NCBI GenBank assembly: GCA_027365475.1
Contig: DAHXNI010000080.1
Location: 5,490 to 69,489 of the forward strand
Direction of reading: 5' to 3'
DNA: 64,000 nucleotides
DNA from: Pseudomonadota bacterium
Lineage (GTDB): Bacteria; Pseudomonadota; Gammaproteobacteria; JAKAQQ01
Within the stretch, counting starts at the first letter, position 1. Each line of letters starts with the position of its first letter. Below the pieces are notes generated by a model. It had not been told where the DNA came from. It saw only the letters and a program-made list of their open reading frames with translations, and did not search any database. Below, in pieces: positions 22,049 to 48,974 of this stretch. The position numbers were made by a program, and so were the translations under genes.

Positions 22049-22091
22049 TGGTAGCGGGGGCAGGATTTGAACCTGTAACCTTCGGGTCATG
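22049..22091 (-). repeat. degenerate copy of the 3' end of tRNA-fMet (distal att site of island element A)
   Basis: tggtagcgggggcaggatttgaacctgtaaccttcgggtcatga: revcomp matches the tRNA 3' end (T-arm, acceptor, CCA) with 3 mismatches. Confidence 0.75.
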
Positions 22092-24324: not shown

Positions 24325-24488
24325 TCGGGGTAGTGTACGGACTTATATGCAAATTCTTGGCGACCTGAAGCGGTCATGGCATGAGGGGGATTCCAACGAT
24401 CAACCCGGTGTCCTGTAGGAGGAACCATACCATGACCGCAAGAAGGCATAGCGCGAACCCAGTCGACCTGAAAGCCTTGTAAGCCGAG

Positions 24489-24632
24489 ATGACCGAACGG
24501 CTCGGGGCTGGCCCCCACGAACGGCAGGAAGGTCGCCAGGGCTACCGGGCCGGCCATTCTGAGTGTGGGCTCGTGACCCGCATCGGCAAACTGGAGCTGC
24601 GGGTCCCCCGGGACCGCAACGGGCAGTTCCAG
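24489..24632 (+). pseudogene. IS256-family transposase, N-terminal fragment, cut by the IS21 insertion
   Basis: MTERLGAGPHERQEGRQGYRAGHSECGLVTRIGKLELRVPRDRNGQFQ matches the IS256/mutator transposase N-terminus. Confidence 0.7.
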
Positions 24633-24702
24633 TGTCACGTCTCACCTTTTCGGGGCCACCCTCGTCTCACCTAATCGGGGCCACGCTGCCAGATGATTAT
24701 AT

Positions 24703-25464
24703 TTACGGATTACGCAGCGTGTTGTCAATCTCGCGTGTGGTAATGCGGCCCCTCAGTCGGTAGCTCTGGCCCTGGAAGATGACCGTGTGTGCCTGCTCGA
24801 AGAGGCGGTCGATGGTGGCGTTAGCGAGCACGCTGTTCGGGAAGACCTCGCCCCATTCCTCCACTGCGCGATTGGACGTGAGCACGAGCCCCGAGCTGTA
24901 CTTGTGCCGGTCCATGAGATCGAACACCTCTTCGGCCGTCTCGCGGTTCATGGCGACCGCCGCCCAATCGTCGATGACCCACAGTTTGCAGGACAAGAGG
25001 CGCTTGAAGAACTGATCGAGCGTGCCCTCGCGCTTTGCCGCCGTAATGTGCTCGATCAGCTTCTTGTGCGTGGCGAAGTAGACCCGGTGTCCACGGCGGG
25101 CGGCGCCCATGCCGAGGGCGAGGGCGACATGGGTTTTCCCGATCCCACAGGGACCGAGGAGGAGCGCGATGCCGTGTTCGTCTATGAACTGCAAGGTGGC
25201 GAGTTCGCGGATCTGCAGCTCATCGATCGCGGGATTAAAACTGAAGTCAAACGTCTCGAGCGATGCCGGCTCTGGGAAGCCCGCCTGCTTGAAGCGAAGC
25301 TTCAACGCGTTTTGTTTTCTCGCATCGAGTTCGCGCGTCAGGAGATCCGATAACCAATCGAGGTTCACCGCCTTCGGGTGTTGTAACAACACCGGCTCAA
25401 GCTCGCGTGCGGCGGTCGACAGACGCAGGCTGCGCAGTTGCGTTTTGACCGTTTCGATGTTCAT
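24703..25464 (-). CDS. istB: IS21-family helper ATPase IstB
   Basis: 253 aa; Walker A GPCGIGKTH, Walker B LWVIDDW. Confidence 0.85.
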   Translation of the reverse strand: MNIETVKTQLRSLRLSTAARELEPVLLQHPKAVNLDWLSDLLTRELDARKQNALKLRFKQAGFPEPASLETFDFSFNPAIDELQIRELATLQFIDEHGIALLLGPCGIGKTHVALALGMGAARRGHRVYFATHKKLIEHITAAKREGTLDQFFKRLLSCKLWVIDDWAAVAMNRETAEEVFDLMDRHKYSSGLVLTSNRAVEEWGEVFPNSVLANATIDRLFEQAHTVIFQGQSYRLRGRITTREIDNTLRNP

Positions 25465-25466
25465 GC

Positions 25467-27044
25467 CTCATGCTCCGGGGGTTGGGTGGGACGAAGCGAG
25501 AGCAGGTCGGTGTAGACCGACAGGTCTCGCGTGAACTTGTTTTTCGGGCGCGCCACAGGGGCTGCGTTCACCGCCGTTGCGGCTTGAGCGCGCTGCAGCA
25601 GACTCGCGACCTTGCGATACGAGTAGCACTTCAGGTCGATCGCCGAGCGGCAGGCGGCATGGATGTCGGCGGGCGCGTATTGCTTATCGAGGGAGAGAAT
25701 CCCTCAGACCTTGCGGGTATCGATGAAGCCCTGGCCCTGGGTCAGGAGCATCACGACGAGTGCTTCGACTGCCGGCCCCAATTGCCGTGCCCGCAGGCGG
25801 TAGAGCGACCGATCCGAGAGGGAGCGCTCCCAAGGCTTCAAATGCTCAGGTTTGGTTTGTTTCGAGCGGTAGGGATCGGTCAGCCGTGCATGGGTTTCGA
25901 TCAGGATTCCCCGGTGATAAATGGCCAGGCGCGTCCTCCCGCCGAGCATCAGCACCTCCTCGCCGATGTAGCGCTCCACCACCGAGTAGTAGCGGTTGGC
26001 AAACCGCACATGGCCGTCGCGGCGCACGGTGGCAGTCGCCGTCTCTTCGATCTCGTAGGCCACCGCGGGTAGCGCGCGCAGGTGCTCGCGGTCCCGAGGA
26101 AGATCATCGATCGGTCGGCGTTGCGTCGTACCGTGGCGGCGCGCATTGGCGAGCACCAGTTTGCGATCAAGATAGTCCTGCGACTCCTCGAGACTCACGA
26201 ACTCGCCATGGGCCTCGTAGAGACGGCGCACATACGGCATCAGGCGCTCGACCTTGCCCTTCTTCGCGGGCTCGCGCGGGGGCAGGCATTCGATGGTAAA
26301 CCCGTAATGCGCGGCCAAGCGCTCAAAGGCGGGGTTGAGCAGCGGCTCGAAGCGCGAGGCCTCAAGACAAAAGCACTTCGGGTTGTCGGAGGTCAGCCGC
26401 ACGGGCACGCCAGCGATCTCGCCGAGCATGCTTTCGATGGCCGCGAGCGTGGTGGCGACGTCGTTCCTCCAGACGAGCCGCACCATCAGATAGCGGGAGA
26501 AGCCGAGCACGCCGACGAAGGCCCAGAGCGCGCGCCGGGTGCGGTGCGCGGGATCCGCGACCCGCGCGAGCAATCCCCAGTCGAGAATCAGGGCCTCCCC
26601 GGGCTCGTGCACGATCTCGGGGATCACGCGCTCGCCTTGGGTGCCGCGGGCGAGTTCGGCCAGCGCATGGCGATGCAAGAAGCGGTAGAAGCTGGGGCGC
26701 GTGACGGCAACACCGAGCGTGGCGCCGAGCTCTTCGAAGACAGTGATGGCATGCCAGCCCGCGCGCAACCGCTCCTCGATCCACGCGCCATGGGCACTGA
26801 GGACGGCATCGATGCCCGAACGCGGCTCGGTGCGGCGATCGGCCCGATCGGGGAAGAGTGCCTCGGGGTAGACCGGCAGCGCGCGGCCCGCCAGGTAGCC
26901 GTGCTCGGCGGCGAGCGCCTTGATCTTCTCGAAGCGCCCGTTGCCAATCTTGAGATGTTCTTTAATCCAGCGGCGGCTTTTGCCCGCCACCAATAGCTCT
27001 ACGATCTTTCGGTCCACCAGTCGCCTCCGGGTTAACTGCCTCAT
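25467..27044 (-). pseudogene. istA: IS21-family transposase IstA, interrupted by an in-frame TGA at 25704-25706
   Basis: 446-aa ORF with HTH and DDE domains. A C-terminal ~79 codons (GILSLDKQYAPADIHAACRSAIDLKCYSYRKVASLL...) continue in the same frame after the TGA, down to the istB start. Either a nonsense mutation or a sequencing error. Confidence 0.75.
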
Positions 27045-28008: not shown

Positions 28009-28098
28009 AGAGCAGCGTCGCGAACGACTTCGGCAGGCCGCCTAATGAAACCGTCCTTCATACCAAAAATGAATTTGCACAACTTGACGTACAGAACC

Positions 28099-28127
28099 GC
28101 TTCCGACTTGCTGCCGAAGGTCGCCAT
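28099..28127 (-). pseudogene. 29-bp remnant of the 5' end of a tyrosine integrase gene (element A integrase, deleted)
   Basis: gcttccgacttgctgccgaaggtcgccATG matches the intact integrase at 48699-48725 plus its start at 48790-48799. The same downstream P-arm-like sequence and att follow. It directly abuts the IS256 right IR. Confidence 0.55.
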
Positions 28128-28216
28128 GGCTGCTCCTCCATTGGCCTCAGTTCGAGCTCAGTGGACCAATAAAGGTCAAGTCATGAGTCGTGGCATGTTA
28201 TAAGTTATTGATTTTG

Positions 28217-28262
28217 TGGTAGCGGGGGCAGGATTTGAACCTGCGACCTTCGGGTTATGAGA
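28217..28262 (-). repeat. exact copy of the 3' 46 nt of tRNA-fMet (att site between island elements A and B)
   Basis: The revcomp gtctcataacccgaaggtcgcaggttcaaatcctgcccccgctacca is identical to the 3' half of the intact tRNA at 48898-48943. Confidence 0.85.
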
Positions 28263-28545
28263 CCTGAAAAAGGCAAAAATAGATCAATCGGTTACGTACG
28301 ATATAACTTGTTATTCAATCACTTGGGATCACATCGTTGACCCGGCGATAACCCTGTTTTAGACTCCGAGTGGACCAAATTTGTCCCAAGAAAATGATTT
28401 TAACACTCTCGGATCTCGTATGGAAATGGACGCGCCAGTTTCGGTTGTGTGAACCCTGCAGCGTAATAGGCGACCGGACTCGCGCTCGTGCTGTAGCTGT
28501 ATGTACACCACGATCCAAGTGGCTCAGAAAGTTTCACTTGAGTCA
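28217..28545. repeat. ~320-bp direct repeat, copy 2 (see 22049-22375)
   Basis: Alignment by eye. Confidence 0.8.
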
Positions 28546-30324: not shown

Positions 30325-30332
<8 letters not shown>

Positions 30333-30651
30333 GGCTTTCGACATCGAAATTCTGCGCGGAGCCGCGGCACAGGGGCGCCTTCACTGGCACCAGCATGCGT
30401 TGGAGCGCTTTCTGGAGCGCGGGATTTCCCGCGCCGAGATCGTAAGCGCTATCATGAACGGTGAGGTGATCGAGGTCTACCCAACGGATCGCCCGTATCC
30501 GAGTTGTCTCATTCTGTACGTGGAGGCGGAGCCGGTGCACGTGGTGGCCGCCGCCGAGCCTGCCACGCGGATGTGCCATGTCATCACCGCGTACCGGCCG
30601 GACCTTGAGTATTTCGAACCGGATTTCAAGACCAGGAGGAAAAAGTCATGA
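30325..30651 (+). CDS. DUF4258-family protein (putative toxin of a DUF4258/YgiT pair)
   Basis: 108 aa; [30 protein letters not shown]...HVVAA...VITAYRPD fits the DUF4258 pattern. 8-bp overlap with hsdM, 4-bp overlap with the next gene. Confidence 0.6.
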
Positions 30652-30893
30652 GCGAGGACTTCGGGCATTGCCCCCTTTGCGGCGGCGAAAAGCAACCGGG
30701 CACCACGACCTTTGCCGTCGATTTGAAATTCGGCGTCGTGGTGGTCAGGGAAGTTCCCGCGTTCGTCTGCACGAAATGTGGCGATGCGTGGATCGACGAT
30801 CCGGTGGCGGCGAAGCTGGAAGGCATCGTTACGGACGCGCGTCGCAAGCACGCCGTGGTGGAGGTTACGCACTGGCAGCAGGTAGCGGCGTGA
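30648..30893 (+). CDS. YgiT-type zinc-finger protein (MqsA-like antitoxin partner of DUF4258)
   Basis: 81 aa; CPLCGGEK...REVPAFVCTKCGDAW two CxxC pairs, typical YgiT/MqsA N-terminal zinc finger. Confidence 0.65.
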   Translation: MSEDFGHCPLCGGEKQPGTTTFAVDLKFGVVVVREVPAFVCTKCGDAWIDDPVAAKLEGIVTDARRKHAVVEVTHWQQVAA

Positions 30894-31250: not shown

Positions 31251-32129
31251 ATGAGTGGTAGCTGGAGTCTGAGTCAGACGACCTTTGCGGAGCTTGACTG
31301 GAAGATGCTTCAAGGTCGACCAGGGCTGGGTTTCTATCGGCTCATAGCGCAGGTTGATCTTACCACCCACGGCAAACAGGTGGGAGAAGAAGTCGCGGTA
31401 ACAAATATTGGTGGTGAACTGTGGATACGCGGAAAGGGCAACCAGGAACACTTCTTGGGTTACCTAAGGCGGCAAGGCACAGAATTCCCCCTTACAACCT
31501 ATCGGCATATATCCAAAGGGAATATCTCACTTGAGATTGAATTGGATGCAAGACGCATTGAAGCATTAGAGCAAATCAGGCTCGGAGGGGACTTATCTTT
31601 CAGGATGAACTTATATGGAGTGGCCTCTGGCGGCCGCGAAAAAAGTTCACAGGAAGTGCAGGCCACACTTCAATACCGGGCCAATCAGAGCACCTGGGCC
31701 GAGATACTTGAGCAGATGGGCTATCGGCAAACGATGCTCTTGGAGATTCCAGTGCCCGGAGACGAGGTCAGCCCACAGTTACAGGAGGCGGTGAAGCATC
31801 TCCAAACTGCGCAGACACATATGCTGCGTGGGCATTTCCGGGACGCGGTCGGTGCATGCCGAGATGTTGTGGAATCGCTGTCTATCACCTTGAGTGACGA
31901 GAAAGACCAATTGCCGGAGGCGATCCAATCTTGGTTCAAAGACACGCGGTCAATGGATAAAAAAGAAAGACTCCGGATCGTTCGGCGGGCGCTCAAGGTA
32001 TTGACCCATCCGGCCCGGCATGCGGACGAGGTCTCGGCTTCGATAGAGTGGGGACCGACGGATGCGAGGACGGTTATTCTTATGGCAGCAGCTTTACTCC
32101 AAATAGCCGCTGAAGAGAAACAATCATAG
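31251..32129 (+). CDS. hypothetical protein (292 aa), no recognisable domain; embedded between the TA pair and hsdS
   Basis: Clean ATG start. Appears AT-richer than its neighbours by eye. The long ORF is not overlapped by a convincing alternative. Confidence 0.5.
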   Translation: MSGSWSLSQTTFAELDWKMLQGRPGLGFYRLIAQVDLTTHGKQVGEEVAVTNIGGELWIRGKGNQEHFLGYLRRQGTEFPLTTYRHISKGNISLEIELDARRIEALEQIRLGGDLSFRMNLYGVASGGREKSSQEVQATLQYRANQSTWAEILEQMGYRQTMLLEIPVPGDEVSPQLQEAVKHLQTAQTHMLRGHFRDAVGACRDVVESLSITLSDEKDQLPEAIQSWFKDTRSMDKKERLRIVRRALKVLTHPARHADEVSASIEWGPTDARTVILMAAALLQIAAEEKQS

Positions 32130-33520: not shown

Positions 33521-33524
<4 letters not shown>

Positions 33525-35083
33525 ACGCCAAGGTGCTGTCGCCAGTACTTACCAGCCGACGATCGATTCTTGATCTGACGTACAACGAAGCGCGCACCTT
33601 CTTGCTCAAGCCGGAAAGTTATTGCAGTCTGGACTTGCCGCCGTACATCGCCTTTGGCGATTTAATTAATGGTGTACATCAGATCCTCGACGGAAAAAGA
33701 CTGACAGATTTTAAGAAAAAGAAACAGGCCAATCCGAGAGACCACGATGACGTCAATTACACCATCCTGCACAACAAGGATGGAAAGTATGCGTGGCGTC
33801 CATTCCAACTGATTCATCCGGCCCTGTATGTTTCGCTCGTGCACGCGATTACCGAAGAGGACAGCTGGAAGCTGATTCGTGATCGTTTTCAGAAATTCGC
33901 GACCAATAACAAGATACGTTGCCTGAGTTTGCCAGTGATGTCGTTCTCGGATGAGAAAGACCGGGCAGAACAGGTCTCGCACTGGTGGAACGCGGTTGAG
34001 CAGCGCTCCATCGAGCTGTCACTTGACTACGGCTACCTTATCGAAACTGATATCACTGACTGTTACGGTGCCATCTACACGCATTCGATTGCCTGGGCGT
34101 TGCACACGAAAGACGAGGCGAAGAAAAAAACAAACCGTAATAACCCGAACCTCATCGGCAATGTCATTGACAGCCATATTCAGGACATGCGCCACGGCCA
34201 GACCAACGGCATTCCACAGGGCTCTGTATTGATGGATTTTATCGCCGAGATGGTGCTCGGCTTTGCCGACCAGGCGTTGTCAGAACGTCTCCAGACGAAG
34301 AAAGACATTACGGATTACCGGATATTGCGTTACCGGGACGATTATCGCATCTTCATCAACAGTCCGCAGGTTGGCGATGAGATCGTCAAGTTGATCACCG
34401 AAACAACTGCGGATCTTGGCCTGAAGCTCAGTCTGCCCAAAACCAAAATGAGCAACAACATTGTGCGAGCCTCGATCAAGAGCGACAAGCTGGCATGGAT
34501 GGCCCGAAAACAATCCGACGAGAACCTGCAGAAGCACCTGCTTATCATTTACGGCCACGCGACCAGCTTCCCCAACACGGGTAGCCTTGTAATCGCACTG
34601 AATGGTTACCACAAGCGCGTCTCAAAACTTACATCACTCTTAAGTCCCCAGCCATTGATCGCCATCGTGGTTGATATCGCCTACCGCAATCCGAGAACCT
34701 ACCCTATCTGTGCAGCGATCCTCAGCAAGCTGCTGAGCTTTATTGCAAACAATGACGAGCGTCTGGACATTGTCAAGCGCATCCGGAAAACTTTCTCTCA
34801 GATACCCAACACCGGACATATGCAAATCTGGTTGCAGCGAGTGACATTCCCGCTCGACAGAAATATCGACTATGACGAGACCGTGTGCAAGCTGGTGGTA
34901 GCAGGCAATACAGGCAATATTAGGCCTCTGTGGAATAATGACTGGATTTCATGTCCCGAGCTTAAAGCCGCCGTAAACGCGACCAAGATCGTCGACACTA
35001 CAACTCGCGACAAAATAGCTCAGGTCATCTCGCCGAAGGAGGTAGAGTTATTCCTGTCCAAGACTGGCGAGGGTTATTACTGA
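33521..35083 (+). CDS. Reverse transcriptase (RNA-directed DNA polymerase), stand-alone 520 aa, defence-associated (Abi/UG/DRT-like)
   Basis: RT motifs: ETDITDCYGAIYTHSIAWAL (motif A, catalytic Asp), GIPQGSVLMDFIAEMVL (motif B'), ILRYRDDYRIFI (motif C, YxDD), LGLKLSLPKTKM (motif D). ~110-aa N-terminal and ~170-aa C-terminal extensions of unknown function. The ATG overlaps the hsdS stop (ATGA). AT-richer than flanking hsd genes by eye. Confidence 0.85.
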
Positions 35084-35186
35084 TGGCCTTTCTCGCCAAA
35101 GCTTGCTTGGAAAGCATGCTGTTAGCCAATCGGCTATCCGGCGACCCGCGCATCGCTAACACTGAAAAGAGCATGCCGACACGAAG

Positions 35187-36338
35187 ATGACCCGAATCCC
35201 CATCAACCCCGATCTGCTGATTTGGGCGCGCGAGCGTGCTGGATTGGACAGGCTCGCGCTGGCAAGACCCTTCCCCAAACTCTCCGAGTGGGAAGACGGG
35301 GCACTAGCGCCAACCTTGCGGCAATTAGAGAACTTCGCCAGAGCGGTGCATGTGCCCGTGGGGTTCTTGTTCTTGCCCACTCCGCCGGAGGAGGTGCTAC
35401 CTATCCCCGATTTTCGTACGCTGGCTGCCCGTAAAGTCTCCCGCCCCAGTCCAAATTTGCTAGACACGATTTATCTGTGCCAGCAACGGCAAGACTGGTT
35501 TCGCGAATATGCCCGCATACACGCGCTGACACCATTACCCTTCGTGGGCAGTGTACGCGTGCGGGATGCACCCGAGCACATAGCAGGAATGATGCAGCAG
35601 GCGCTGTCACTCTCGATCTCGGAGCGACAGCAGCTGCCCACCTGGACCGATGCCCTGCGCCAGCTCATCAATAAGACGGAAGACGCTGGCGTTCTAGTGA
35701 TGTCCAGCTCCACCCTCGGTAGCAACAGCCACCGCAAGTTGGATGTGTCGGAGTTCCGCGGTTTTGCGCTGGCGGACGACCTGGCACCACTGGTATTCAT
35801 CAATGCCGCCGATAGCAAGGCGGCGCAGATGTTCACGCTGGCACACGAGCTGGCGCACCTGTGGCTGGGAGAGAGCGGCATTTCCAATACCGAGGCGGGG
35901 CAGTTTCCCAAGCAAGGTGTCGAACGCTGGTGCAACGCGGTGGCCTCGGAATTTCTGGTACCCCTAGCTGCGCTGCGGCGCAAGCATCAGGCCGATGTGC
36001 CGTTAGAGGCTGAGATTCAGCGCCTGGCGCGTACTTTCAAAGTCAGTACGCTGGTGGTCCTACGCCGACAGTTTGATGCGGGTTTCATTGATCAGACCAC
36101 CCTCTGGCAGAACTATCTAGACGAACTGGCCCGTATCCGCGCGCTCGACCAGAGTGGTAGCGGTAGCGGCGATTTCTACCGCACTCTGGGAGCACGTACC
36201 GGAAAGCGATTCGCACGAGCAGTGCTCTCTAGTACGCTGGAAGGGCAGACCCTGTTTCGGGATGCCTTTCGGATGCTGGGCGTGCGCAAGACTTCCACTT
36301 TCTATGAGGCGGCGCGCGAGCTGGGGGTGATGCTGTGA
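35187..36338 (+). CDS. XRE-family HTH domain fused to ImmA/IrrE (DUF955) zinc metallopeptidase
   Basis: 383 aa; N-terminal HTH region; HEXXH zinc-binding motif in FTLAHELAHLWLGE. Confidence 0.8.
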   Translation: MTRIPINPDLLIWARERAGLDRLALARPFPKLSEWEDGALAPTLRQLENFARAVHVPVGFLFLPTPPEEVLPIPDFRTLAARKVSRPSPNLLDTIYLCQQRQDWFREYARIHALTPLPFVGSVRVRDAPEHIAGMMQQALSLSISERQQLPTWTDALRQLINKTEDAGVLVMSSSTLGSNSHRKLDVSEFRGFALADDLAPLVFINAADSKAAQMFTLAHELAHLWLGESGISNTEAGQFPKQGVERWCNAVASEFLVPLAALRRKHQADVPLEAEIQRLARTFKVSTLVVLRRQFDAGFIDQTTLWQNYLDELARIRALDQSGSGSGDFYRTLGARTGKRFARAVLSSTLEGQTLFRDAFRMLGVRKTSTFYEAARELGVML

Positions 36339-36835
36339 GCTACCTGCTTGATGCTAACGTCTTCATCCAGGCCAAGAACCTGCACTATGGACTGGATTTC
36401 TGCCCCGCCTTCTGGGATTGGTTGATCGACAATAACGCGGCTGGTCGTGTGTTCAGTATCGATAAGATCGCGGATGAAATCGCGGCTGGCGCCGACGAAC
36501 TGAACGATTGGGCGCGTGAACAGAGCCATGGCCTGTTTCTACAAACCGGCCCGTCGGTCGCGGCCCAGTTCGGGAAGGTCAGCACTTGGACTATGCAGCA
36601 ACAGTACGAACCGGGAGCTATAAACACCTTTTTGCAGGTAGCTGACTTCTATCTCATTGCCCACGCCCTAGCGTCTGGGCATGTGGTAGTGACTCACGAA
36701 GTGCCAGCCAACTCGGCCAAGCGTGTCAAAATCCCAAATGCATGCATCGGTTTGGGTGTGAAGTTCATGACACCCTATGAAATGCCGCGAACAGAACGTG
36801 CACGATTTGTTCTGAGCAGGGGCAGTGGTCACTGA
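36335..36835 (+). CDS. DUF4411-family protein (PIN-like; usual partner of ImmA/IrrE-HTH proteins)
   Basis: GTG start giving [18 protein letters not shown]..., the characteristic DUF4411 N-terminus. 4-bp overlap upstream, 1-bp overlap with hsdR. Confidence 0.7.
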
Positions 36836-39800
36836 TGAGTTTGTTTTCTGAATCCACCGTCGAATCAGCCGCCCTTGGGTGGCTGGAGTCCCTCGGTTAT
36901 GCCATCCTCAACGGTCCCGATATTGCCATCGGCATGCCGGATGCCGAGCGTAGCGATTACGGCCAAGTGGTGTTGCCGCAGCGGCTGCGCGAAGCCCTAG
37001 CGCGACTTAACCCCGAGCTTCCCGCCGAGGCGCTGGAAGACGCCTTCCGCAAGCTGACGCGGCCGGAGGGTGTTGAGCCAGTGGCGCGCAACCACGGCGT
37101 ACATCGCCTTCTGGTGGAAGGGGTGACGGTCGAATATCGCACCGCTGCTGGTGAGATCCGTGGTGCACAAGCACAGGTAATCGACTGCGATATTCCAGAA
37201 AATAATGACTGGCTCGCGGTCAACCAGTTCACCGTTACCGAAAACAAGCACAATCGGCGGCCGGATGTGGTGCTATTCATCAACGGCCTGCCGCTGGTGC
37301 TGATCGAGTTGAAGAATGCCGCTGACGAAAACGCCACCCTATGGTCGGCTTTTCAGCAGCTCCAGACCTACCAGGCGGAACTTCCCACGCTCTTTGCCTA
37401 TAACGCGCTGCTGGTGATTTCAGACGGTGTCGAGGCGCGCATCGGCACGTTTACCGCCGGACGGGAGTGGTTCAAACCCTGGCGCACGATTGCCGGTGAA
37501 ACGCTGGCCGATCCCAACCTGCCGGAATTGCAGGTGATGCTGGAGGGTGTGTTCAATAAGCGGCGATTGCTCGCTCTTCTGCGGGATTTCATTGTCTTCG
37601 AAGATGAAGGCAGAGGGCGCTTAGTCAAGAAGATGGCGGGCTATCACCAGTTCCACGCCGTGAATGTGGCTGTCGCAGAGACACTCCGAGCGGCGAAACT
37701 GGGGGCAGCCGAAGCCATGGGGCGTTATGAGAGTGGACGCCAACCCGGTGGCGATCCCGGTGATCGGCGCATTGGCGTCGTCTGGCATACCCAGGGCTCC
37801 GGCAAGAGCTTGACCATGGTTTTCTATGCCGGTCGCATTATCCGCGAACCCGCGATGGCGAATCCCACTATTGTGGTCCTCACCGACCGCAACGACTTGG
37901 ACGATCAGCTTTTCGGTACCTTTTCCCGCTGCACCGACATGTTACGCCAGCCGCCGGTACAGGCCGACAGCCGAGCTGATCTCCACGACAAACTCAACGT
38001 GGATGCGGGAGGTGTGGTGTTTACCACTCTCCAGAAGTTCTTCCCCGAAACGAAAGGTGACCGGCACCCGGTGCTTTCAACACGGCATAACATTGTGGTG
38101 ATTGCCGATGAGGCGCATCGTAGTCAGTATGACTTCATTGATGGCTTTGCCCGCCACATGCGAGATGCACTCCCCCATGCCTCCTTCATCGGCTTTACCG
38201 GCACCCCGATCGAGCAAACCGATGCCAATACCCGGGCAGTGTTCGGCGATTACATCAGCATTTATGATATCCAGCGGGCGGTTGAAGACCGGGCGACCGT
38301 ACCGATTTACTACGAGAGCCGCCTTGCCAAGCTCAATCTCAATGAAGCGGAAAAGCCGACCATCGACGCTTCCTTCGAGGAAGTCACCGAGGGCGAGGAA
38401 GTGGACCGCAAGGAAAAACTCAAGAGCAGGTGGGCGCAGCTTGAAGCTGTGGTCGGCGCGGAGACGCGTCTCAAGCGAATTGCTGAGGATATCGTCTCCC
38501 ATTTCGAGGCACGACAGGAGGCCATCGACGGCAAGGCGATGATTGTGTGCATGAGCCGGCGTATCTGCCTGGATCTCCACGATGAGATCAAGAAACTGCG
38601 CCCGTCCTGGATTCACGCCGATGATGATAAGGGTTTGATGAAGGTAGTCATGACTGGCAACGCCTCGGAAGGTCCCCGGGTGGCTGAACACGCGCGTAAT
38701 AAGGCACGGCGCGAAGACTTGGCCAATCGCTTTCGGGATGCCGGGGACCCCCTGAAACTCGTCATCGTCCGGGACATGTGGCTCACAGGCTTCGATGCCC
38801 CGAGCCTTCATACCATGTATCTCGACAAGCCCATGCGCAACCATGGGCTGATGCAGACCATCGCGCGGGTAAACCGGGTATTCAAGAACAAACCTGGCGG
38901 ACTGGTTGTGGATTATCTGGGACTGGCGCCGGCACTCAAGGCGGCGCTCGCCACCTACACGGAAAGCGGCGGTACGGGCCGGACCGCTATTGACCAGAAA
39001 GAAGCCATCGCGGTCATGCAGGAGAAATACGAGATCTGCACCGGACTGCTGCATGGTTTCGATTGGTCCCGGTGGAGTTCGGGTACCCCACAAGAGCGCT
39101 TAGCGCTGCTACCGGCCGCCCAAGAACATCTCCTCAAACAAGAGGACGGTAAAACCCGTTGGCTTCAAGCTGTGCAGGCATTGTCTCAAGCTTTTGCCCT
39201 CGCGGTTCCGAGTGCCGAGGCCCTCGATATCCGCGATGATGTGGCATTCTTCCAGGCCTTGAGGGCAAGTCTTGCCAAGCGTGCACCGGGAGAAGCGAGC
39301 TCGGAAGAAGATCTCGACCAAGCGGTTCGCCAGATCGTCTCCCGGGCGGTGGCTTCGGAAGGCATCCTGGATATTTTCGCTGCGGCGGGTTTGAAAAAAC
39401 CCGATCTCTCGATCCTCTCCGAAGAGTTCCTGGCAGAGGTACGCGGCATGCCCCAGAAGAATCTGGCGGTTGAATTGTTGCGCAAGCTTCTGGACGGTGA
39501 GATCCGCACCAGCGGTCGCAAGAATATAGTGCAGGCCCGGACTTTCTCAGAGATGCTGGAGAAAACCCTGCATCGCTACCAGAGTCGGGCGATCGAAGCC
39601 GCCCAGGTCATCGAGGAACTCATTGATCTGGCCCGGGATATCCGGGAGGCCCAGGCGCGGGGCGAACAACTGGGATTGACGGACGATGAGATTGCGTTCT
39701 ACGATGCGCTGGAAACCAATGACAGCGCAGTGAAGGTGTTGGGCGAGCCGACGCTCAAAGACATTGCCCGGGAACTGGTCAAGACTGTGCGCAGCAATGT

Positions 39801-39966
39801 CACCATTGACTGGACGCTGCGGGAAAATGTCCGCGCTAAACTGCGCGTCTCGGTCAAGCGCATCTTGCGCGAGTACGGCTATCCGCCGGATAAGCAGGAA
39901 AAAGCCACACAGACTGTTCTTGAACAGGCAGAACTCTTATCCGGCCAATGGGCTGAGGTCTCATGA
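36835..39966 (+). CDS. hsdR: Type I restriction enzyme, endonuclease/helicase subunit HsdR
   Basis: 1043 aa; N-terminal nuclease domain, SF2 helicase motifs ([10 protein letters not shown]; [15 protein letters not shown] box), C-terminal HsdR_C. Confidence 0.9.
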
Positions 39967-40127: not shown

Positions 40128-40880
40128 TTATGACTGAAGCAAACCTTCAAGCCTAATATGCATACCTGCGGTCGCCAATTCCTGAGCAACTTTGGTACGC
40201 CACGCCCCCTTTTCGTCAAGTTCGGTGAACAAGACCCCATGAAGATCGGAAGGAACGTCAAGACCTGATACAAACAGTGCAGATACACGGCTCCGGCCGA
40301 GCTTGCCCGTGAAGTACCCGAGTTCAAGTATTACGTTCTGGCGTGCTCTCGGCGCGAGGTCTGCCTGGGCGCCAGCCTTCGATCCAACGTCATCTCCAGT
40401 CAAGAGAACGACTGCAAAGGGTACATCAGCATAGGACTCAAACTTTTCAATGACGGTTCTACCCTGGTTGGCCTGTTCATGGAGGATGATCGGTTCAAGA
40501 CCTACATGCTCCAAAAAGCGCGCGACTAACTCCTTTGCAGCTATGTCGTGGCCATGTACCAAAAAGACATTTCGGGAATTCGATTCGGTTACAGGTGCGC
40601 GCTGCGCAGATCCGGTCGGTAATTTTGACTCAACCAATCTAACAGGCTCAATTCGCAGAGCCAAACCTTCGAGATAACCAAGCTGGCAGTCACGATACTT
40701 CCGCCATTCAAGGTAAGGGTACCCTGCGTCAAACGCTGCGAATGCGGAAGCGGTCTCCTCTCCAAGTGCTGCACGAAGGAAAGCCTCGGATCGGCTAGAC
40801 CAGGTTGAGTATTCGGTCGCGGAATCGCATTTCAGACCAATGTCAATCAGCGTTTCGACTCGCTGTGCAAAAGACTCCAT
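40128..40880 (-). CDS. TIR-like (COG4271/PF10137-type) domain protein with ~110-aa N-terminal domain of unknown function
   Basis: C-terminal ~135 aa NVFLVHGHD..ARFLEHVGLEPIILHEQANQGRTVIEKFE..VPFAVVLLTGDD...RARQNVILELGYFTGKLGRSRV matches the consensus of the 'predicted nucleotide-binding protein containing TIR-like domain' family. Confidence 0.55.
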   Translation of the reverse strand: MESFAQRVETLIDIGLKCDSATEYSTWSSRSEAFLRAALGEETASAFAAFDAGYPYLEWRKYRDCQLGYLEGLALRIEPVRLVESKLPTGSAQRAPVTESNSRNVFLVHGHDIAAKELVARFLEHVGLEPIILHEQANQGRTVIEKFESYADVPFAVVLLTGDDVGSKAGAQADLAPRARQNVILELGYFTGKLGRSRVSALFVSGLDVPSDLHGVLFTELDEKGAWRTKVAQELATAGMHIRLEGLLQS

Positions 40881-41039
40881 GGTGGCTCCGCTCCGTTGTG
40901 TGCGCTCTAACGATTAATATAGGGACGCAAGTTTCCGTATAACAATTATTAGGGTGCCCATTGTGCTCATGTAATCCCCTGATTCGCAAGTACTTTCAGA
41001 TTTCCTGCGTTTCTATAATACCCCCTATCATACGGACAG

Positions 41040-41335
41040 TTTGGAATGGCCCTGACTGGCGAGTAAGCGCCAGGTTTCGGCGTCAACGCAGAGTCAGGCC
41101 CTGAATGCAATTGTTTTTCTCTATGACTGTATCTTGTCCAAGCCTTTGAGCGAAATGATGGGGCTCAAGCGGGTTCCGCACCGTCACCGGATTCCAGTGA
41201 TCCTGACCTGAGAAGAGATCAAAGCGGTGCTGGGCTTAATGGCGGGTCTCGTTCGGGACGAGCTCCCGTCCGCGGTCGATGCCCACGAAAGACTGCATGG
41301 AAGCCGATTCGTAGACGGCGTCTTCGAGGGCAGAA
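41040..41335 (+). pseudogene. fragment of an integron-integrase/XerD-like tyrosine recombinase (N-terminal domain), with in-frame stops
   Basis: LASKRQVSASTQSQALNAIVFLYDCILSKPLSEMMGLKRVPHRHRIPVILT*EEIKAVLGLMAGLV parallels IntI ([22 protein letters not shown]...[22 protein letters not shown]). No catalytic domain follows. Confidence 0.45.
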
Positions 41336-41384
41336 CCCGCCCTCATATCCCGATTTACCCGAATACCTGAATAACCATCGAGGG

Positions 41385-42356
41385 ATGGTGAGCATTGATA
41401 CCGATTGGCACAGGGGTGGGCATATAATCGAATCCCTGATCATGAGCGCTCTTTTTTACGACCCTGAAAAAAAGCTGCGGTACGCTCTACCGCCTCGGCT
41501 CCCCCACTGGCTGCCCCAGGCGATCGCAGAGTTCGTGAGGAAGATCGCCGCCCGGGAACCCGCTCCTCAAAACCTCGATGCGGCACTCTGGTGGCACGAA
41601 GATTACGGGCCGCGCCTCAAGCGGCTCATCACCCATCGGGACATGGAGCGGGTCTGGACCCGGCTGGCCCAAGCTCCCCTCAACCCGAGCATACAAGCCG
41701 TACCCGGAAATGTAGAATCGATCCGGGAGGTGTTTCTCGTCTCCTACCTCCGCACCGCTGTCTATCCGGGCCTGCCCGAATCCTTCGTGGAGAGCATCCC
41801 CTCCTGCGAGGAAATCCAGGAAACCCTCTGTGACATCGCCCGGCTCGCCGAAAAACTCTGCGACCGGCTCGGCGGGAAAACCCCAGATTGTGATCATCAC
41901 TTCACCCCGTGGCTCATGTTTGAGGCCGCGTCCAGAAAGGTCCGGTCCGACCCACAACTCGCCCCCCTGCGCGAGAAACTCCTTTGGCTCCAAAAGGTCC
42001 ATGAAAACCATTACTGGCGACCGGGCAATCCCTCTGCCGACGACCACCTGATCAACCTCCGGGCACCGTTCTCCTCCCTGAACCTGCAGCTTGAGAGCCT
42101 GGGCCTCCTGGCCCGCATCGCCGCCAAAGAGCAGCCCAAAACTCCCAAGCGTTCAAAGACCTTATATCCCCGCCTCCTCGCCCAGACCCTTGCCCGCCTA
42201 GCTGATTCCTGCCTCGCGGGTCACTACTGGCAGGCCATCGCCACCACCGTCACGGTTTCTCTCGCACTCGATCCCCCCTTCACCGAATCCCACGTCCGCT
42301 CCTGCCTTCGGGAGGGCGCAGGAAAATCACGGAAAAGCACCCCGAATCATACGTAA
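41385..42356 (+). CDS. hypothetical protein (323 aa; alternative start at 41445), no recognisable domain
   Basis: Long ORF with a GAGGGA RBS-like sequence 4 nt upstream of the ATG; divergent from the TIR-like gene. Confidence 0.45.
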   Translation: MVSIDTDWHRGGHIIESLIMSALFYDPEKKLRYALPPRLPHWLPQAIAEFVRKIAAREPAPQNLDAALWWHEDYGPRLKRLITHRDMERVWTRLAQAPLNPSIQAVPGNVESIREVFLVSYLRTAVYPGLPESFVESIPSCEEIQETLCDIARLAEKLCDRLGGKTPDCDHHFTPWLMFEAASRKVRSDPQLAPLREKLLWLQKVHENHYWRPGNPSADDHLINLRAPFSSLNLQLESLGLLARIAAKEQPKTPKRSKTLYPRLLAQTLARLADSCLAGHYWQAIATTVTVSLALDPPFTESHVRSCLREGAGKSRKSTPNHT

Positions 42357-42416: not shown

Positions 42417-42473
42417 ATGAAACAGCTCATCGACATCGACACACTCTCCGAAACCCTCGCCATCCCCAACCGG
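42417..42473 (+). pseudogene. AlpA-like (phage transcriptional regulator) gene, 5' fragment cut by an IS insertion
   Basis: MKQLIDIDTLSETLAIPNR: the 'LS..L.I' start of the AlpA HTH, truncated at the IS left end. Confidence 0.4.
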
Positions 42474-44534
42474 GGTTTAACAAGTAGCAAAAAATATGTT
42501 TCCCATTCAAGTTGTTACGATTTCAAGAATCGAGTGTGCGTTACCAACGCCTCAACGTGGTATCAAACGACCAGTTTCTTGGTCTCCCCCGGCTTCGGAC
42601 CAAGCCCCAAGGCCTGGTAAATCGCCTGGAGTTCGGGTTCGGCCACCGTGCTCTGGCGCACATGCAGCGTGCGCCCATCGCGGCGGCGAACGCTGGCCGT
42701 GACACGGCGCTGAACCGATAAGATCTCGCGCAGGCTCGACCAGCTCTCGTGGATGCCCTTTTCCTTCAGTGGGCGCCGCAGGGTCTGCACCACTTGATAG
42801 GCGAGCACGCTGATGAACAGATGCCCATCGGTGCGCGCTTCCTTGTGATGATAGACCGGCCGCAGGCCGAGCTCCGACTTCAGGCTGCGAATCACCGCCT
42901 CCAGGTCGGTCAGCATGATATAGGTGTGCCACAACCGCGCCTCGTCCCAGTGGGTTTCATTGGTGCGAAGACAATAGACGCCGGGGTGGGTAAGGAGCGT
43001 GCCCTCGATTGGCTGTTTCACCCAAGTGAGCGAGGCCGCTTGCTCACCGCTCTCATCGGGCGTCAAGGCAATGAGGTAATGCTGTCCCACGCGGCTTCGC
43101 TCCTTCAGTCGTCCAATGCGTTCCTGGAGCTTCGAGATGCGTTTTTCACCGCGGGGTTTGTCGAGTCCCTCGGCCATGGCCTTCAGCCCGGTCTCGAGCC
43201 GCGCACACAGCCGCCGCGCGATCGCCGACTCCTTCGCTTGGCGTCCCGTGGAGTAGCAATGCAGTTGCACCTCGCTGCCATCCGCGCTGGTTACCTTCTG
43301 GATCTGGAGGGTCTCGTGGCTCGCCGTCTCGATCGCGATGGCAGGGGCCGCCTCGAAGTGGCGCGTGCGCTTGCGGCTGACGACGAGATAGCGATACCCG
43401 CAGGCGACGAGCCAGGCGAGGTTCGCCTCACTCGCGATACCGGCATCCATCACGATGAGACAGCCGCGGGGAGCGCCCAGCCCCGCCAGCATCGCTTCGA
43501 GCGTTTTGACCTCCGCGGCATTGCCGGCAAAGGTCTGGGAGCGGCGAATAAAGCCGCTGCCATCGAGTACGAGCCCGAGCGTCACGAGCGGACAATCACT
43601 TCGTTTTTCCTTGGAACGCCCGCGGGCAGCCTGGGGATTGGCGGCGGCGGTGCCTTCAAAATACGTATTCGTGAGATCGTAGAGCGTTACCGTGGTCTCT
43701 AGCCCAAAGAGATCGCGGACGTTCTCAAAGAGCTTGGATTCGATCGTGGCGCGGTATTTGATGAGCCGATCCGATGCCCGATAGAGCGCCATCATCGACA
43801 TCGCCTCGAAATCGACTTCCATCAATTCACCCAAACCACTCGTCATCGTGAGCCAGCGCCAGGTGGCCAGTTCCGAGCCCGGTTGGGCCAGGCGTCCGAT
43901 CACGTTGGCCAGGGCGGCGTTCTTTAATTTACCATTGAAGCCACACTCGGTGAGGATCGCCTCCAGCCCCAGTTGCTTCATGGCATGCCAGGCGACGTAC
44001 TCGACACCGATCGAGCGCGGACGCACCTGCTCGAGCGAGTCGAGGGCGACCTCCGCAAACACCGGGGGCGCGGTGGCGGAGGCTACCGCGGCAGGGGTTG
44101 GCGCGCGCACCACCAACCGCGCCGCATAGCGTTGCGCCAGGCGCTCGAGGCGCGGGCCCAAGGGCACGGCCGAGAGCGATGTCTGGGCGGAGAGAATCTG
44201 CTCGAGGCGGGCACAGAGCGCGGGCCAATGCTTGGGGGCCACGCCAAAATCCCGCCCGAGATTGAGCCGCGCCACCTGGCGGACACTCTTTCCGTGTCGT
44301 TCGCTGCTCACCAGGCGATAAGTGACGTAGGACTCCCCATTCAGTTTGCTGCGCGTGGCGGTGCGGCGGATGAACATGCACGCACGCTACACACCCGCGG
44401 TGCCCGGGACAAGGGGGTCAATGAAATATTATGGCACTACAAACGGCCCGCGCGAACCGGGTGGTCGAAACATCAATACGTTACCTTCGCCAAGGGGGTC
44501 GAGAAGGCATGTTTTGGAAGGGGAAGTGTTAAAG
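42474..44534 (-). mobile_element. IS1634-family (IS4 superfamily) insertion sequence, ~2.06 kb, flanked by ACCGG on both sides
   Basis: Imperfect terminal IRs (GGTTTAACAAG.. / ..CTTTAACAC); single 604-aa transposase; ACCGG at 42469-42473 and 44535-44539. The exact ends are uncertain. Confidence 0.6.
42563..44377 (-). CDS. IS1634/IS4-family DDE transposase
   Basis: 604 aa; the size and the MFIRRTATRSKLNGESYVTYRLV... N-terminus are typical of IS1634-group transposases. Confidence 0.7.
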   Translation of the reverse strand: MFIRRTATRSKLNGESYVTYRLVSSERHGKSVRQVARLNLGRDFGVAPKHWPALCARLEQILSAQTSLSAVPLGPRLERLAQRYAARLVVRAPTPAAVASATAPPVFAEVALDSLEQVRPRSIGVEYVAWHAMKQLGLEAILTECGFNGKLKNAALANVIGRLAQPGSELATWRWLTMTSGLGELMEVDFEAMSMMALYRASDRLIKYRATIESKLFENVRDLFGLETTVTLYDLTNTYFEGTAAANPQAARGRSKEKRSDCPLVTLGLVLDGSGFIRRSQTFAGNAAEVKTLEAMLAGLGAPRGCLIVMDAGIASEANLAWLVACGYRYLVVSRKRTRHFEAAPAIAIETASHETLQIQKVTSADGSEVQLHCYSTGRQAKESAIARRLCARLETGLKAMAEGLDKPRGEKRISKLQERIGRLKERSRVGQHYLIALTPDESGEQAASLTWVKQPIEGTLLTHPGVYCLRTNETHWDEARLWHTYIMLTDLEAVIRSLKSELGLRPVYHHKEARTDGHLFISVLAYQVVQTLRRPLKEKGIHESWSSLREILSVQRRVTASVRRRDGRTLHVRQSTVAEPELQAIYQALGLGPKPGETKKLVV

Positions 44535-44538
44535 ACCG

Positions 44539-44766
44539 GCCAAGGGATCCATCCGCAACGCGCTCTGGCGCGGACAGGGCGGCATCAACATCCCGAATCC
44601 TATCCGCATCGGCCGCTGCCTGCGCTGGGATACCGAATCTGTCGACCAGTGGATCGCGGGCAAGTCCACAGAGCCATCATCCGCCCGGGGGAAACGCCGG
44701 AAAAGACCGGATGCGCTTCCGGCCCGACCATACAGTCTGTCGGGAAAACCCGGTGCTGAGACGTGA
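44539..44766 (+). pseudogene. AlpA-like regulator, 3' portion (HTH recognition helix and C-terminus)
   Basis: AKGSIRNALWRGQGGINIPNPIRIGRCLRWDTESVDQWIAGKS matches the Phage_AlpA pattern (P.PI.IG.R.VRW...EV..WI). Confidence 0.55.
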
Positions 44767-47770: not shown

Positions 47771-48799
47771 TCAACCCAGTCTCTTGGCGAGATCCTCGGC
47801 CCGGAGATGGGTATAGCGCTTCAGCATCTCAAGCGTCTTGTGTCCGGTGATGGCCGCAACCTCCATCGGATTGAACCCTTTCTCGAAGAGCCGGCTCGTG
47901 GCTTCATGCCGGAGATCATGGAATCTGAGATCCACCATCGGCTCGAGCGCCTGTGAGCTTTGGCTCTTCTTGCCCATCGCAGCCCGTGCCGTGATCCGTG
48001 CGAATGCCTGGCTGATCGCATCTGCCGTCATCCCGAACACCGAGCCATCAAGCCTCCGGGGCAGCCCCTTGAGCACCTCGAGCGCCCGGCTCGAGAGCGG
48101 CACATCCCGCCTCTCCCCGTTCTTCGTCTCCTCGAGATGGATGACCCGATTCCCCCAGTCCACCTGTTCCCAACGCATCCCTGCAATTTCTCCCCGCCGC
48201 ATGGCCGTTTCCAGGGCGAGCACGATAATCGGCCCGATCATCCCCCCATAGGCCTTGGCACGGGCCAATAGCTCATCACCCTCCCCCGGCTCAAGTCTCC
48301 GTTTCCGTCCGGGCGGAAGCTTGGGACGCGCCGCGCGTGCCAGGGCAACCGGGTTCTGGAGGCTTTCCATGCCCCACGAGGTCCGGGCGAGTTCGAAGAC
48401 ACGGGAGATGATACCGAGGTCGAGCTTGATCGTGTGCGGGTTCATGCCTTCCATCTCGCGCTCGTGAATGAATCCGGCAATGTCCTTCCCGCGAATGCCG
48501 GCGAGCTTACGCAGGGCAAGTGGTCGCTTCTCAATGGCACGGGCCCGGTAGGTGGCCATCTTCCGGCCCTTAAGCCTTGGCACGTACTCGGTCACGAAAC
48601 GCTCCAGCGCCTCGGCAAGTGTCGTCTCCTCCGCCTCGGTGCGCGAGAGAAAGATTCCCCGGCCCATTTCGGACTCGATGCCGTGTGCCCAAGCTGCCGC
48701 TTCCGACTTGCTTCCGAAGGTCGCCGTCTCGACCGGATACCCACGCCGCCGGACGCGCACCCGCCACTGCCCCGATTTCCGCCGTTCGAATGTCGCCAT
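47771..48799 (-). CDS. int: Tyrosine-type site-specific integrase (phage integrase family) of the tRNA-fMet island
   Basis: 342 aa; catalytic R...HxLRH...Y motifs (RRGEIAGMRWEQV; HDLRHEATSRL; LKRYTHL); start 98 bp from the tRNA 3' end. Confidence 0.9.
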   Translation of the reverse strand: MATFERRKSGQWRVRVRRRGYPVETATFGSKSEAAAWAHGIESEMGRGIFLSRTEAEETTLAEALERFVTEYVPRLKGRKMATYRARAIEKRPLALRKLAGIRGKDIAGFIHEREMEGMNPHTIKLDLGIISRVFELARTSWGMESLQNPVALARAARPKLPPGRKRRLEPGEGDELLARAKAYGGMIGPIIVLALETAMRRGEIAGMRWEQVDWGNRVIHLEETKNGERRDVPLSSRALEVLKGLPRRLDGSVFGMTADAISQAFARITARAAMGKKSQSSQALEPMVDLRFHDLRHEATSRLFEKGFNPMEVAAITGHKTLEMLKRYTHLRAEDLAKRLG

Positions 48800-48897
48800 G
48801 GCTGCTCCTCCATTGGCCTCAGTTCGAGCTCAGTGGACCAAATTTGGACCAAAAGGTCAAGTCATGGGTCGTGACAGTTTCTATCTTATTGATTTTG

Positions 48898-48974
48898 TGG
48901 TAGCGGGGGCAGGATTTGAACCTGCGACCTTCGGGTTATGAGCCCGACGAGCTGCCAGACTGCTCCACCCCGCA
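48898..48974 (-). tRNA. tRNA-fMet (initiator, anticodon CAT), intact; integration target of the island
   Basis: The revcomp (T)GCGGGGTGGAGCAGTCTGGCAGCTCGTCGGGCTCATAACCCGAAGGTCGCAGGTTCAAATCCTGCCCCCGCTACCA folds as a cloverleaf. It has three G-C pairs in the anticodon stem and an unpaired 1:72 position, both hallmarks of bacterial initiator tRNA. The encoded CCA is present. Confidence 0.9.

Follow-up and report, generated by a model that had tools for sequence, protein, structure and literature searches.

The 64,000-nucleotide stretch of gammaproteobacterial DNA analysed here, called the window below (assembly GCA_027365475.1, contig DAHXNI010000080.1, positions 5,490 to 69,489), carries a gene for a 250-amino-acid (aa) protein with a C-terminal TIR domain. 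With a probability of roughly 0.6, this protein is a self-contained, single-gene abortive-infection candidate, in which phage-triggered clustering of an N-terminal helical bundle would bring together TIR active sites that are completed in trans and would deplete the cell of nicotinamide adenine dinucleotide (NAD+). The gene lies directly after hsdR of a type I restriction-modification (R-M) operon and is divergent from an open reading frame (ORF) of 323 aa, which the first-pass annotation of this DNA had joined with it into a candidate two-gene module. The 323-aa ORF was found to be unrelated to the TIR gene and is not its partner. Both ORFs were confirmed where they had been placed, the 250-aa one on the minus strand (40128-40880) and the 323-aa one on the plus strand (41385-42356).

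36835-39966, plus strand: hsdR, final gene of the type I R-M operon (Pfam HSDR_N, SWI2_SNF2 and T1RH-like_C)
40128-40880, minus strand: TIR gene, 250 aa plus stop codon (ORF; PADLOC family PDC-S35, subtype model PDLC05005)
40916-40945, minus strand: sigma-70-like promoter match, 36 nt upstream of the TIR start codon (consensus scan)
41442-42356, plus strand: the '323-aa' ORF (open from 41385), probably a 304-aa gene (ORF and homologue comparison)

Domains, active site and proposed mechanism of the TIR protein

40131-40571, minus strand: TIR domain of the Cap12/PycTIR clade, residues 104-250 (PF10137, Foldseek and PDB profile search)
40323-40343, minus strand: codons R180-Q-N182-V-I-L-E186, NAD-binding motif with the putative catalytic glutamate (aligned to R-D-N-V-V-F-E of SfSTING)
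40323-40325, minus strand: E186 codon (read from the sequence)
40245-40247, minus strand: D212 codon in the motif P-S-D, equivalent of SfSTING D110 (alignment iPSDlhG / LPTDLDG)
40572-40649, minus strand: flexible linker, residues 78-103 (confidence of the AlphaFold2, AF2, model and sequence identity)
40650-40880, minus strand: residues 1-77, four-helix domain at the N-terminus, proposed as sensor or clustering module (AF2)

The C-terminal part had been assigned to TIR-like proteins from short segments (VFLVHGHD, VVLLTGDD and RARQNVILELGYFTGKLGR), all of which were found in the 250-aa translation, and this assignment was upheld both by profile search and by structure comparison. The PF10137 profile (CAP12/Pycsar effector TIR domain) matched residues 104-222 with an E value of 5.8e-34 and 117.1 bits against a cutoff of 24.7, covering profile positions 1-118 of 119. 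The AF2 model of the 250-aa protein had a mean predicted local distance difference test score (pLDDT) of 74.9, and its PDB matches bore out the TIR (flavodoxin-like) fold: the best Foldseek matches were the TIR-STING structures 9lmq, 9lmr and 7un8 (E 1.6e-6 to 6e-4, probability 1.00, 148 aligned columns in the top match), followed by the TIR domains of MyD88, SARM1 and SPARTA. When a profile of 28 homologues was run against the PDB, two Cap12/TIR-STING proteins (Cap12 at 1.1e-8) and PycTIR (3.4e-3) were returned. By sequence and by fold, the closest TIR domains are those of Cap12/TIR-STING (SfSTING, 7un8; 9lmq) and PycTIR (8jsj). A literature search on COG4271 gave nothing useful.

In the NADase (NAD+-hydrolysing) pocket of SfSTING, R78 and N80 contact NAD+ and E84 is catalytic; D110 comes from the opposite TIR domain and completes the active site of the neighbouring subunit (PMC9402430). 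The HMMER alignment placed R180, N182, E186 and D212 of the window protein at the positions of R78, N80, E84 and D110, with P-T-D of SfSTING opposite P210-S-D212, so that the R-x-N-x-x-x-E motif and the trans-acting aspartate of Cap12 and PycTIR are both conserved. Since these four residues were invariant in 28 of 28 aligned sequences, the enzymatic equipment looks intact, including the residue that depends on packing of one TIR domain against another. The TIR protein is probably an NAD+-hydrolysing anti-phage enzyme.

The N-terminal part of about 100 aa had been left without an assignment in the first-pass annotation, and no Pfam family was found there either in the window protein or in the N-domains of 21 members, which gave scattered chance matches only. 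Nor did it match any STING, SAVED, cyclic nucleoside monophosphate (cNMP)-binding or CARF family. A weak PDB match to the CesA chaperone (E 0.77) was dismissed. In the AF2 model this region forms helices at residues 4-16, 21-39, 41-48 and 55-77, a block with pLDDT mostly of 79-95, followed by linker residues 78-98 that are disordered (pLDDT below 50). The mean pairwise identity among homologues was 37% in the N-domain, 16% in the linker and 69.5% in the TIR domain, and W27, W59, L70 and G72 of the N-domain were invariant. Among 80 loci with closely related TIR domains, at least five unrelated N-terminal classes (37, 19, 9, 3 and 2 members) and singletons were distinguished, the window protein belonging to the class of 19. 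The fast divergence of the N-domain and the interchangeable N-termini would fit a sensor role.

The architecture resembles that of SpbK from the Bacillus subtilis element ICEBs1, which has a four-helix bundle (residues 1-94) joined by an 18-residue linker to a TIR domain (113-266), and which senses YonE, the portal of phage SPbeta: its N-domains dock on the portal, the TIR domains cluster and NAD+ cleavage is switched on (PMC12847820). The AF2 model, compared with the published description, likewise shows a four-helix bundle, a flexible linker of about 20 residues and, at the C-terminus, a TIR domain, the proteins being 266 aa in SpbK and 250 aa here, and both are encoded by single genes on integrative elements. 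One difference is the TIR domain of the window protein, which falls in the PF10137 Cap12/PycTIR clade. Neither the PDB sequence search (E up to 10) nor the 50 Foldseek matches listed contained an SpbK chain, the presence of SpbK in those PDB copies being unverified.

By this analogy, the TIR domains would be dispersed or held in an inactive dimer in the uninfected cell. Upon infection, the N-terminal bundle would bind a phage-made, probably multimeric, protein, or would be clustered in some other way. The TIR domains would then pack together, and D212 of one subunit would complete the R180/N182/E186 pocket of its neighbour; NAD+ would be hydrolysed, and the infected cell would no longer support phage growth. 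The NADase activity, the activation by clustering, the phage-protein trigger and the abortive-infection outcome are what we infer from the conserved residues and from the architectural analogy with SpbK and TIR-STING.

The closeness of the TIR domain to the signal-activated Cap12 and PycTIR could also mean that the protein is an orphan effector awaiting a nucleotide messenger made elsewhere in the genome, by a CBASS, Pycsar, type III CRISPR or Thoeris system, and an orphan TIR-SAVED effector working without its own cyclase is reported in a preprint (10.1101/2025.06.19.660554). However, the window protein carries a 77-residue helical bundle in place of the STING, SAVED or cNMP-binding sensor domain of such effectors, and it scored 33 bits with the NCBIfam Cap12 models against a cutoff of 450. 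No cyclase (CD-NTase or pyrimidine cyclase) was seen among the island proteins scanned, the neighbours of the TIR gene being hsdR, pseudogene fragments, the 304-aa gene and an IS1634 element, and no cyclase cluster was found among the neighbours in the 80 loci. We regard such an orphan effector as very unlikely.

TIR domains are capable of two jobs, and the window protein might instead make a cyclic ADP-ribose (cADPR)-type molecule for an unlinked receptor, in the manner of ThsB, rather than deplete NAD+. SpbK itself makes N1-cADPR, and its authors leave an unlinked receptor open (PMC12847820). Thoeris, however, pairs the ThsB TIR protein with a ThsA-type effector, whereas the TIR gene of the window has no same-strand neighbour and no effector gene was conserved beside it in the 80 loci. 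The named members of PF10137 are CBASS and Pycsar effectors, and a survey of signalling TIR proteins removed stand-alone TIRs in the same filter step as likely NAD+-depleting effectors (10.64898/2025.12.03.692087). A signal-generating role appears unlikely on these grounds. Other single-protein TIR systems have been shown to protect E. coli against phages in a manner dependent on the TIR active site (2024, PMC11350192); these are also short single proteins in which TIR is the sole recognised domain, although they come from a different host clade and are likened here by description only.

A widespread single-gene family

Five PADLOC models of the family PDC-S35, in which 'S' stands for single gene, matched the 250-aa protein with E values from 3.3e-67 to 2e-37. 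The best of them, PDLC05005 (E 3.3e-67), was a full-length match, residues 18-246 aligning with model positions 23-261 of 264, and the other four matched the TIR half. The 145 PDCs, both single- and multi-gene, were put forward by their authors as untested candidates, and the PDC-S35 family was picked up by embedding in R-M, BREX or DISARM systems (10.1101/2024.01.29.577857; Payne et al. 2024 preprint). Like the members of PDC-S35, the window gene is a single gene adjoining a type I R-M system, and no difference from them is apparent in its sequence. The literature yielded no mention of 'PDC-S35', either in main texts or in the source preprint's supplements. The proposal of a candidate uncharacterised defence system thus kept its first half: the PDC-S35 match and the profile and fold matches of the TIR domain support a defence candidate, but not an uncatalogued one, since PADLOC already lists the TIR protein. 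Judged by its profile matches, the TIR gene is an ordinary further member of an already listed candidate family.

The homologues number more than 6400; of the best 120, nearly all are about 250 aa long and most are full-length matches. They occur in Proteobacteria, Acidobacteriota, Chlorobiota, Bacteroidota, Planctomycetota, Chloroflexota, cyanobacteria and one archaeal metagenome-assembled genome (MAG). Relatives of the TIR domain were present on 1161 of the 72,556 plasmids searched and in a few phages, and the family of the 250-aa protein matched PHROG 16442. On plasmid R64 (L097, NC_005014.1 38912-40091), a 299-aa PF10137 TIR protein was seen whose TIR domain is 55% identical to that of the window protein; this type is carried by about 1000 enterobacterial plasmids, including the IncI1 plasmid R64. 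It has a different N-terminus and an overlapping upstream ORF of 96 aa with no Pfam match, and the gene is flanked by vapBC and a P-loop NTPase gene; the R64 TIR gene and the 96-aa ORF may be a two-gene variant of the family. Escherichia phage vB_EcoM-689R2 (L095, ON470582.1 3105-3866) encodes a 253-aa PF10137 TIR protein similar in size and layout to that of the window; its gene has a DNA polymerase gene on one side and small hypothetical genes on the other.

For the neighbourhood test, raw ORFs were called in the 80 TIR-homologue loci and all those within 4 kb of the TIR gene were clustered. No neighbour was conserved, the largest cluster occurring in 6 of 80 loci. This commonest neighbour was an MNT-type nucleotidyltransferase, the partner of the HepT toxin; integrases, recombinases, Doc-like, XRE-peptidase and type III R-M genes were each found in 3-4 loci. 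Because of the PDC-S35 match and the lack of a conserved neighbour in these loci, we consider it highly probable that the TIR gene is a single-gene unit unlinked to the 323-aa ORF. In a Paracoccaceae MAG (L084, 1-6550), a PF10137-type TIR gene and an MNT/HepT pair lie between a type III R-M methylase gene and its restriction gene, which is an independent case of R-M embedding. In Nitrosomonas, just after the bio operon, a conserved 212-aa protein with no Pfam match is encoded upstream of the closest homologues (72-74% identity) and on their strand (L004, 7303-7941; L087, 7250-7888). This gene was rejected as a TIR partner, being confined to those related contigs; neither the window nor any other locus examined has it. 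A further homologue (L099) lies in a small mobile region.

Several points weigh against the proposed NAD+-depleting abortive-infection role. The predicted NADase activity is read from four aligned residues, and the alignment with Cap12 at the sequence level is limited to the C-terminal half of the TIR domain (query 153-224). The AF2 loops 136-143 and 166-179 are of low confidence, and the template modelling score was modest (0.41 over 148 aligned columns, with normalisation to the full-length query). With SpbK the protein shares its architecture only, so that SpbK serves as a lead to how the protein may work and not as a sign of membership. PDC-S35 is one of the candidates that the source paper lists as untested (10.1101/2024.01.29.577857), and the window gene differs from the family's pattern in adjoining the R-M operon, beside hsdR and convergent with it, rather than being embedded inside it. 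The promoter match is weak, as one site was found against 1.3 expected by chance; a GGAG Shine-Dalgarno-like motif lies nearer the ATG of the TIR gene than this match. Close homologues also occur amid housekeeping genes, namely the bio operon (L004, L087) and nuoN (L098).

The housekeeping surroundings of these homologues could also point to a role outside defence, or the enzyme could have a different substrate and be a glycosidase for nucleotides or nucleic acids, resembling the MilB-type hydrolases. The TIR fold is common to nucleotide hydrolases such as MilB, and the invariant HGHD motif at residues 109-112 differs from SfSTING, in which S10 is among the residues coordinating NAD+ (PMC9402430). 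Against this, the NAD+-contacting residues of SfSTING are conserved, it was embedding in R-M, BREX or DISARM systems that brought the family to notice (10.1101/2024.01.29.577857), and the variable N-termini and the presence on plasmids and in phages fit defence better than housekeeping. Another substrate or a housekeeping role therefore seems doubtful, and NAD+ depletion in defence remains our preferred reading.

If the preferred reading is carried over to the whole family, PDC-S35 could comprise SpbK-like phage sensors of one protein each, very widely distributed and based on a Cap12-clade TIR domain, with each N-terminal class being the receptor for a different phage protein; we offer this as a tentative proposal and think it rather less probable than its opposite. 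Within it, the four-helix class marked by W27, W59, L70 and G72 would be an undescribed phage-protein receptor whose clustering leads to NAD+ depletion. The SpbK principle, in which TIR NADases are clustered through the docking of a tiny helical domain on a phage assembly, would then extend to a different TIR clade and to many phyla, and the family would supply small, swappable sensors of phage proteins. The practical value is modest: the gene already carries a candidate flag in PADLOC, and for E. coli and Bacillus there are validated single-protein TIR defences of a similar kind.

The divergent ORF and the spacer

The more useful result is a negative one: the 323-aa gene is not to be cloned with the TIR gene, and the locus is not to be counted as a new two-gene system. 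The alternative, a two-gene defence cassette in which the divergent 323-aa protein serves the TIR-like protein as sensor or regulator, has some points in its favour. The genes are adjacent and divergent, the 323-aa protein is real, confidently folding and of unknown function, and besides the window both genes are found together in two 'Gammaproteobacteria bacterium' MAGs (L001 and L002). These two loci, however, are collinear with the window except for an IS1634 copy, and since they represent the same island at 97.7% nucleotide identity, they are not an independent co-occurrence. None of the 80 TIR-homologue loci carried a relative of the 323-aa ORF, and none of the eight loci of ORF homologues (L003, L088-L094), with those of a 60%-identical homologue and six remote homologues among them, carried a TIR gene; the pair was never found together in independent genomes. 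No relative of the ORF was present on the 72,556 plasmids that yielded 1161 with the TIR domain. The proposed two-gene module is by these results close to refuted.

Base composition and the spacer also speak against a cassette. The GC content is 52.1% in the TIR gene, 58.3% in hsdR and 61.4% in the 323-aa ORF, and the corresponding values at third codon positions (GC3) are 49%, 67.6% and 72.5%, so that the TIR gene and the ORF are 9 points of GC and 23 points of GC3 apart. The first-pass annotation had both genes as richer in AT than the hsd genes, which is right for the TIR gene when compared with hsdR, but the 323-aa ORF is richer in GC. The TIR gene and the 304-aa gene are separated by about 560 bp of integrase and transposase debris, including an integrase pseudogene fragment. 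On its other side, the TIR gene is convergent with hsdR across a gap of 161 bp, within which the terminator scan found no terminator.

41056-41247, plus strand: fragment of an integrase pseudogene with an in-frame stop, from the end of the N-terminal SAM-like domain (six-frame translation; PF13495, E 3.2e-6)
41236-41346, minus strand: possible N-terminal remnant of an IS5-type transposase, tentative (translation ...LEDAVYESASMQSFVGIDRGRELVPNETRH; DUF772, E 0.087, below cutoff)
42417-42469, plus strand: 5' end of a small AlpA/HTH_17-like gene (MKQLIDIDTLSETLAIP...), cut by IS1634 (HTH_17 weak, E 0.026)
42470-44539, minus strand: IS1634-family insertion sequence (transposase gene 42563-44377; NCBIfam transpos_IS1634, E 2.5e-83)

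The PF13495 match in the spacer covers profile positions 53-84 of 85 only, and the same fragment was also called as a 51-aa piece in L001 and L002. The AlpA-like gene resumes at about 44540, with the blastn break at 42469/44540, and is intact (91 aa) in both of these MAGs, from which the IS1634 copy is absent. In the simplest reading, the junction sets defence cargo, the hsd operon and the TIR gene, against a decayed mobile-element segment consisting, in order, of the integrase fragment, the 304-aa gene and the AlpA-like gene later split by IS1634. The 304-aa gene is more likely part of this mobile-element remnant.

The 323-aa ORF was compared with its 60%-identical homologue, giving 85, 61 and 124 substitutions at codon positions 1, 2 and 3 and indels in frame, and because of this pattern it is taken as a real coding gene. 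Judging from the 303-aa homologue P0121, the true start is probably M21 at 41442, which would give a protein of 304 aa. Two homologues were found in an indexed search of 5.8e9 proteins, and 23 in an exhaustive HMMER search of 1.84 billion representatives. The 304-aa AF2 model was confident and all-alpha (pLDDT 83, predicted TM-score 0.72), and a fold search against the PDB and the viral BFVD gave no match below E 0.3. As had been noted from the translation alone, the ORF has no recognisable domain: Pfam, PADLOC and PHROGs gave no match and NCBIfam nothing significant, and Pfam searches with 20 members of the family also found nothing. The locus of the 60%-identical homologue has a SRAP-type gene upstream. 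Remote homologues, where the contig was long enough, were followed by a small ORF of 75-97 aa, and in one case a RepB-primase/PriCT/DUF3631 gene came after it; what these small ORFs share is their position alone, and not all of them can be aligned. A module of the 304-aa gene with an AlpA gene is only loosely supported. The 304-aa protein founds a rare family, which may serve an unknown mobile-element function.

The tRNA-Met island

28217-48945, no strand assigned: genomic island of about 20.7 kb, delimited by direct repeats of the tRNA-Met 3' part at 28217-28264 and 48898-48945
47771-48799, minus strand: island integrase gene
48898-48974, minus strand: complete tRNA-Met gene (Rfam)
30325-30893, plus strand: DUF4258 gene (E 4.8e-22), overlapping a small zinc-ribbon gene by 4 nt, right after hsdM
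31251-32129, plus strand: 292-aa ORF between hsdM and hsdS (no Pfam, PADLOC, PHROGs or NCBIfam match; GC 52.8%)
33521-36835, plus strand: three genes between hsdS and hsdR, namely AbiP2, RmrA-like and DUF4411
22646-27044: contents of a smaller tandem island of 6 kb, an AbiEi/AbiEii pair and an IS21 element
22646-24324: AbiEi/AbiEii pair
24703-25464 and 25704-27044, both minus strand: IS21 element, IstB gene and IstA-like gene

The TIR gene lies in an island bounded by repeats of the 3' part of tRNA-Met, which contain exact copies of 32 nt and form a repeat family (D1) at 91% identity. A third copy with 2 mismatches is found at 22049-22080, and the sequence upstream of the integrase gene is duplicated, 28097-28169 resembling 48697-48841. 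Because of the three tRNA-Met 3' copies and this duplication, we take the region to be a single tRNA-Met hotspot next to the nuo operon, into which two islands have integrated in tandem. A 54%-identical full-length TIR homologue in Nitrosospira sp. NpAV (L098, 9001-11423) stands alone directly beside nuoN, in the same chromosomal neighbourhood as the island of the window; neither a tRNA nor island genes were detected next to it.

The larger island contains hsdM, the DUF4258 and zinc-ribbon genes, the 292-aa gene, hsdS, AbiP2, the RmrA-like and DUF4411 genes, hsdR, the TIR gene, the mobile debris with the 304-aa gene, a ParE toxin gene with a small gene before it, a DUF1697 gene and the integrase gene. 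It is reasonable to see support for a defence role of the TIR gene in this defence and mobile context. The hsdM, hsdS and hsdR genes carry the expected type I R-M domains. When the island was scanned with Rfam for an RNA that might belong to it, for instance that of a retron, the tRNA was the only match. The AbiP2-type gene encodes a defence reverse transcriptase (PADLOC, E 4e-204), and the RmrA-like XRE/M78 peptidase gene is overlapped by the DUF4411 gene. The zinc-ribbon gene gave weak MqsA/YokU-like antitoxin matches, and its pair with the DUF4258 gene resembles a toxin-antitoxin system. By the logic of guilt by embedding, the 292-aa ORF is itself a defence candidate.

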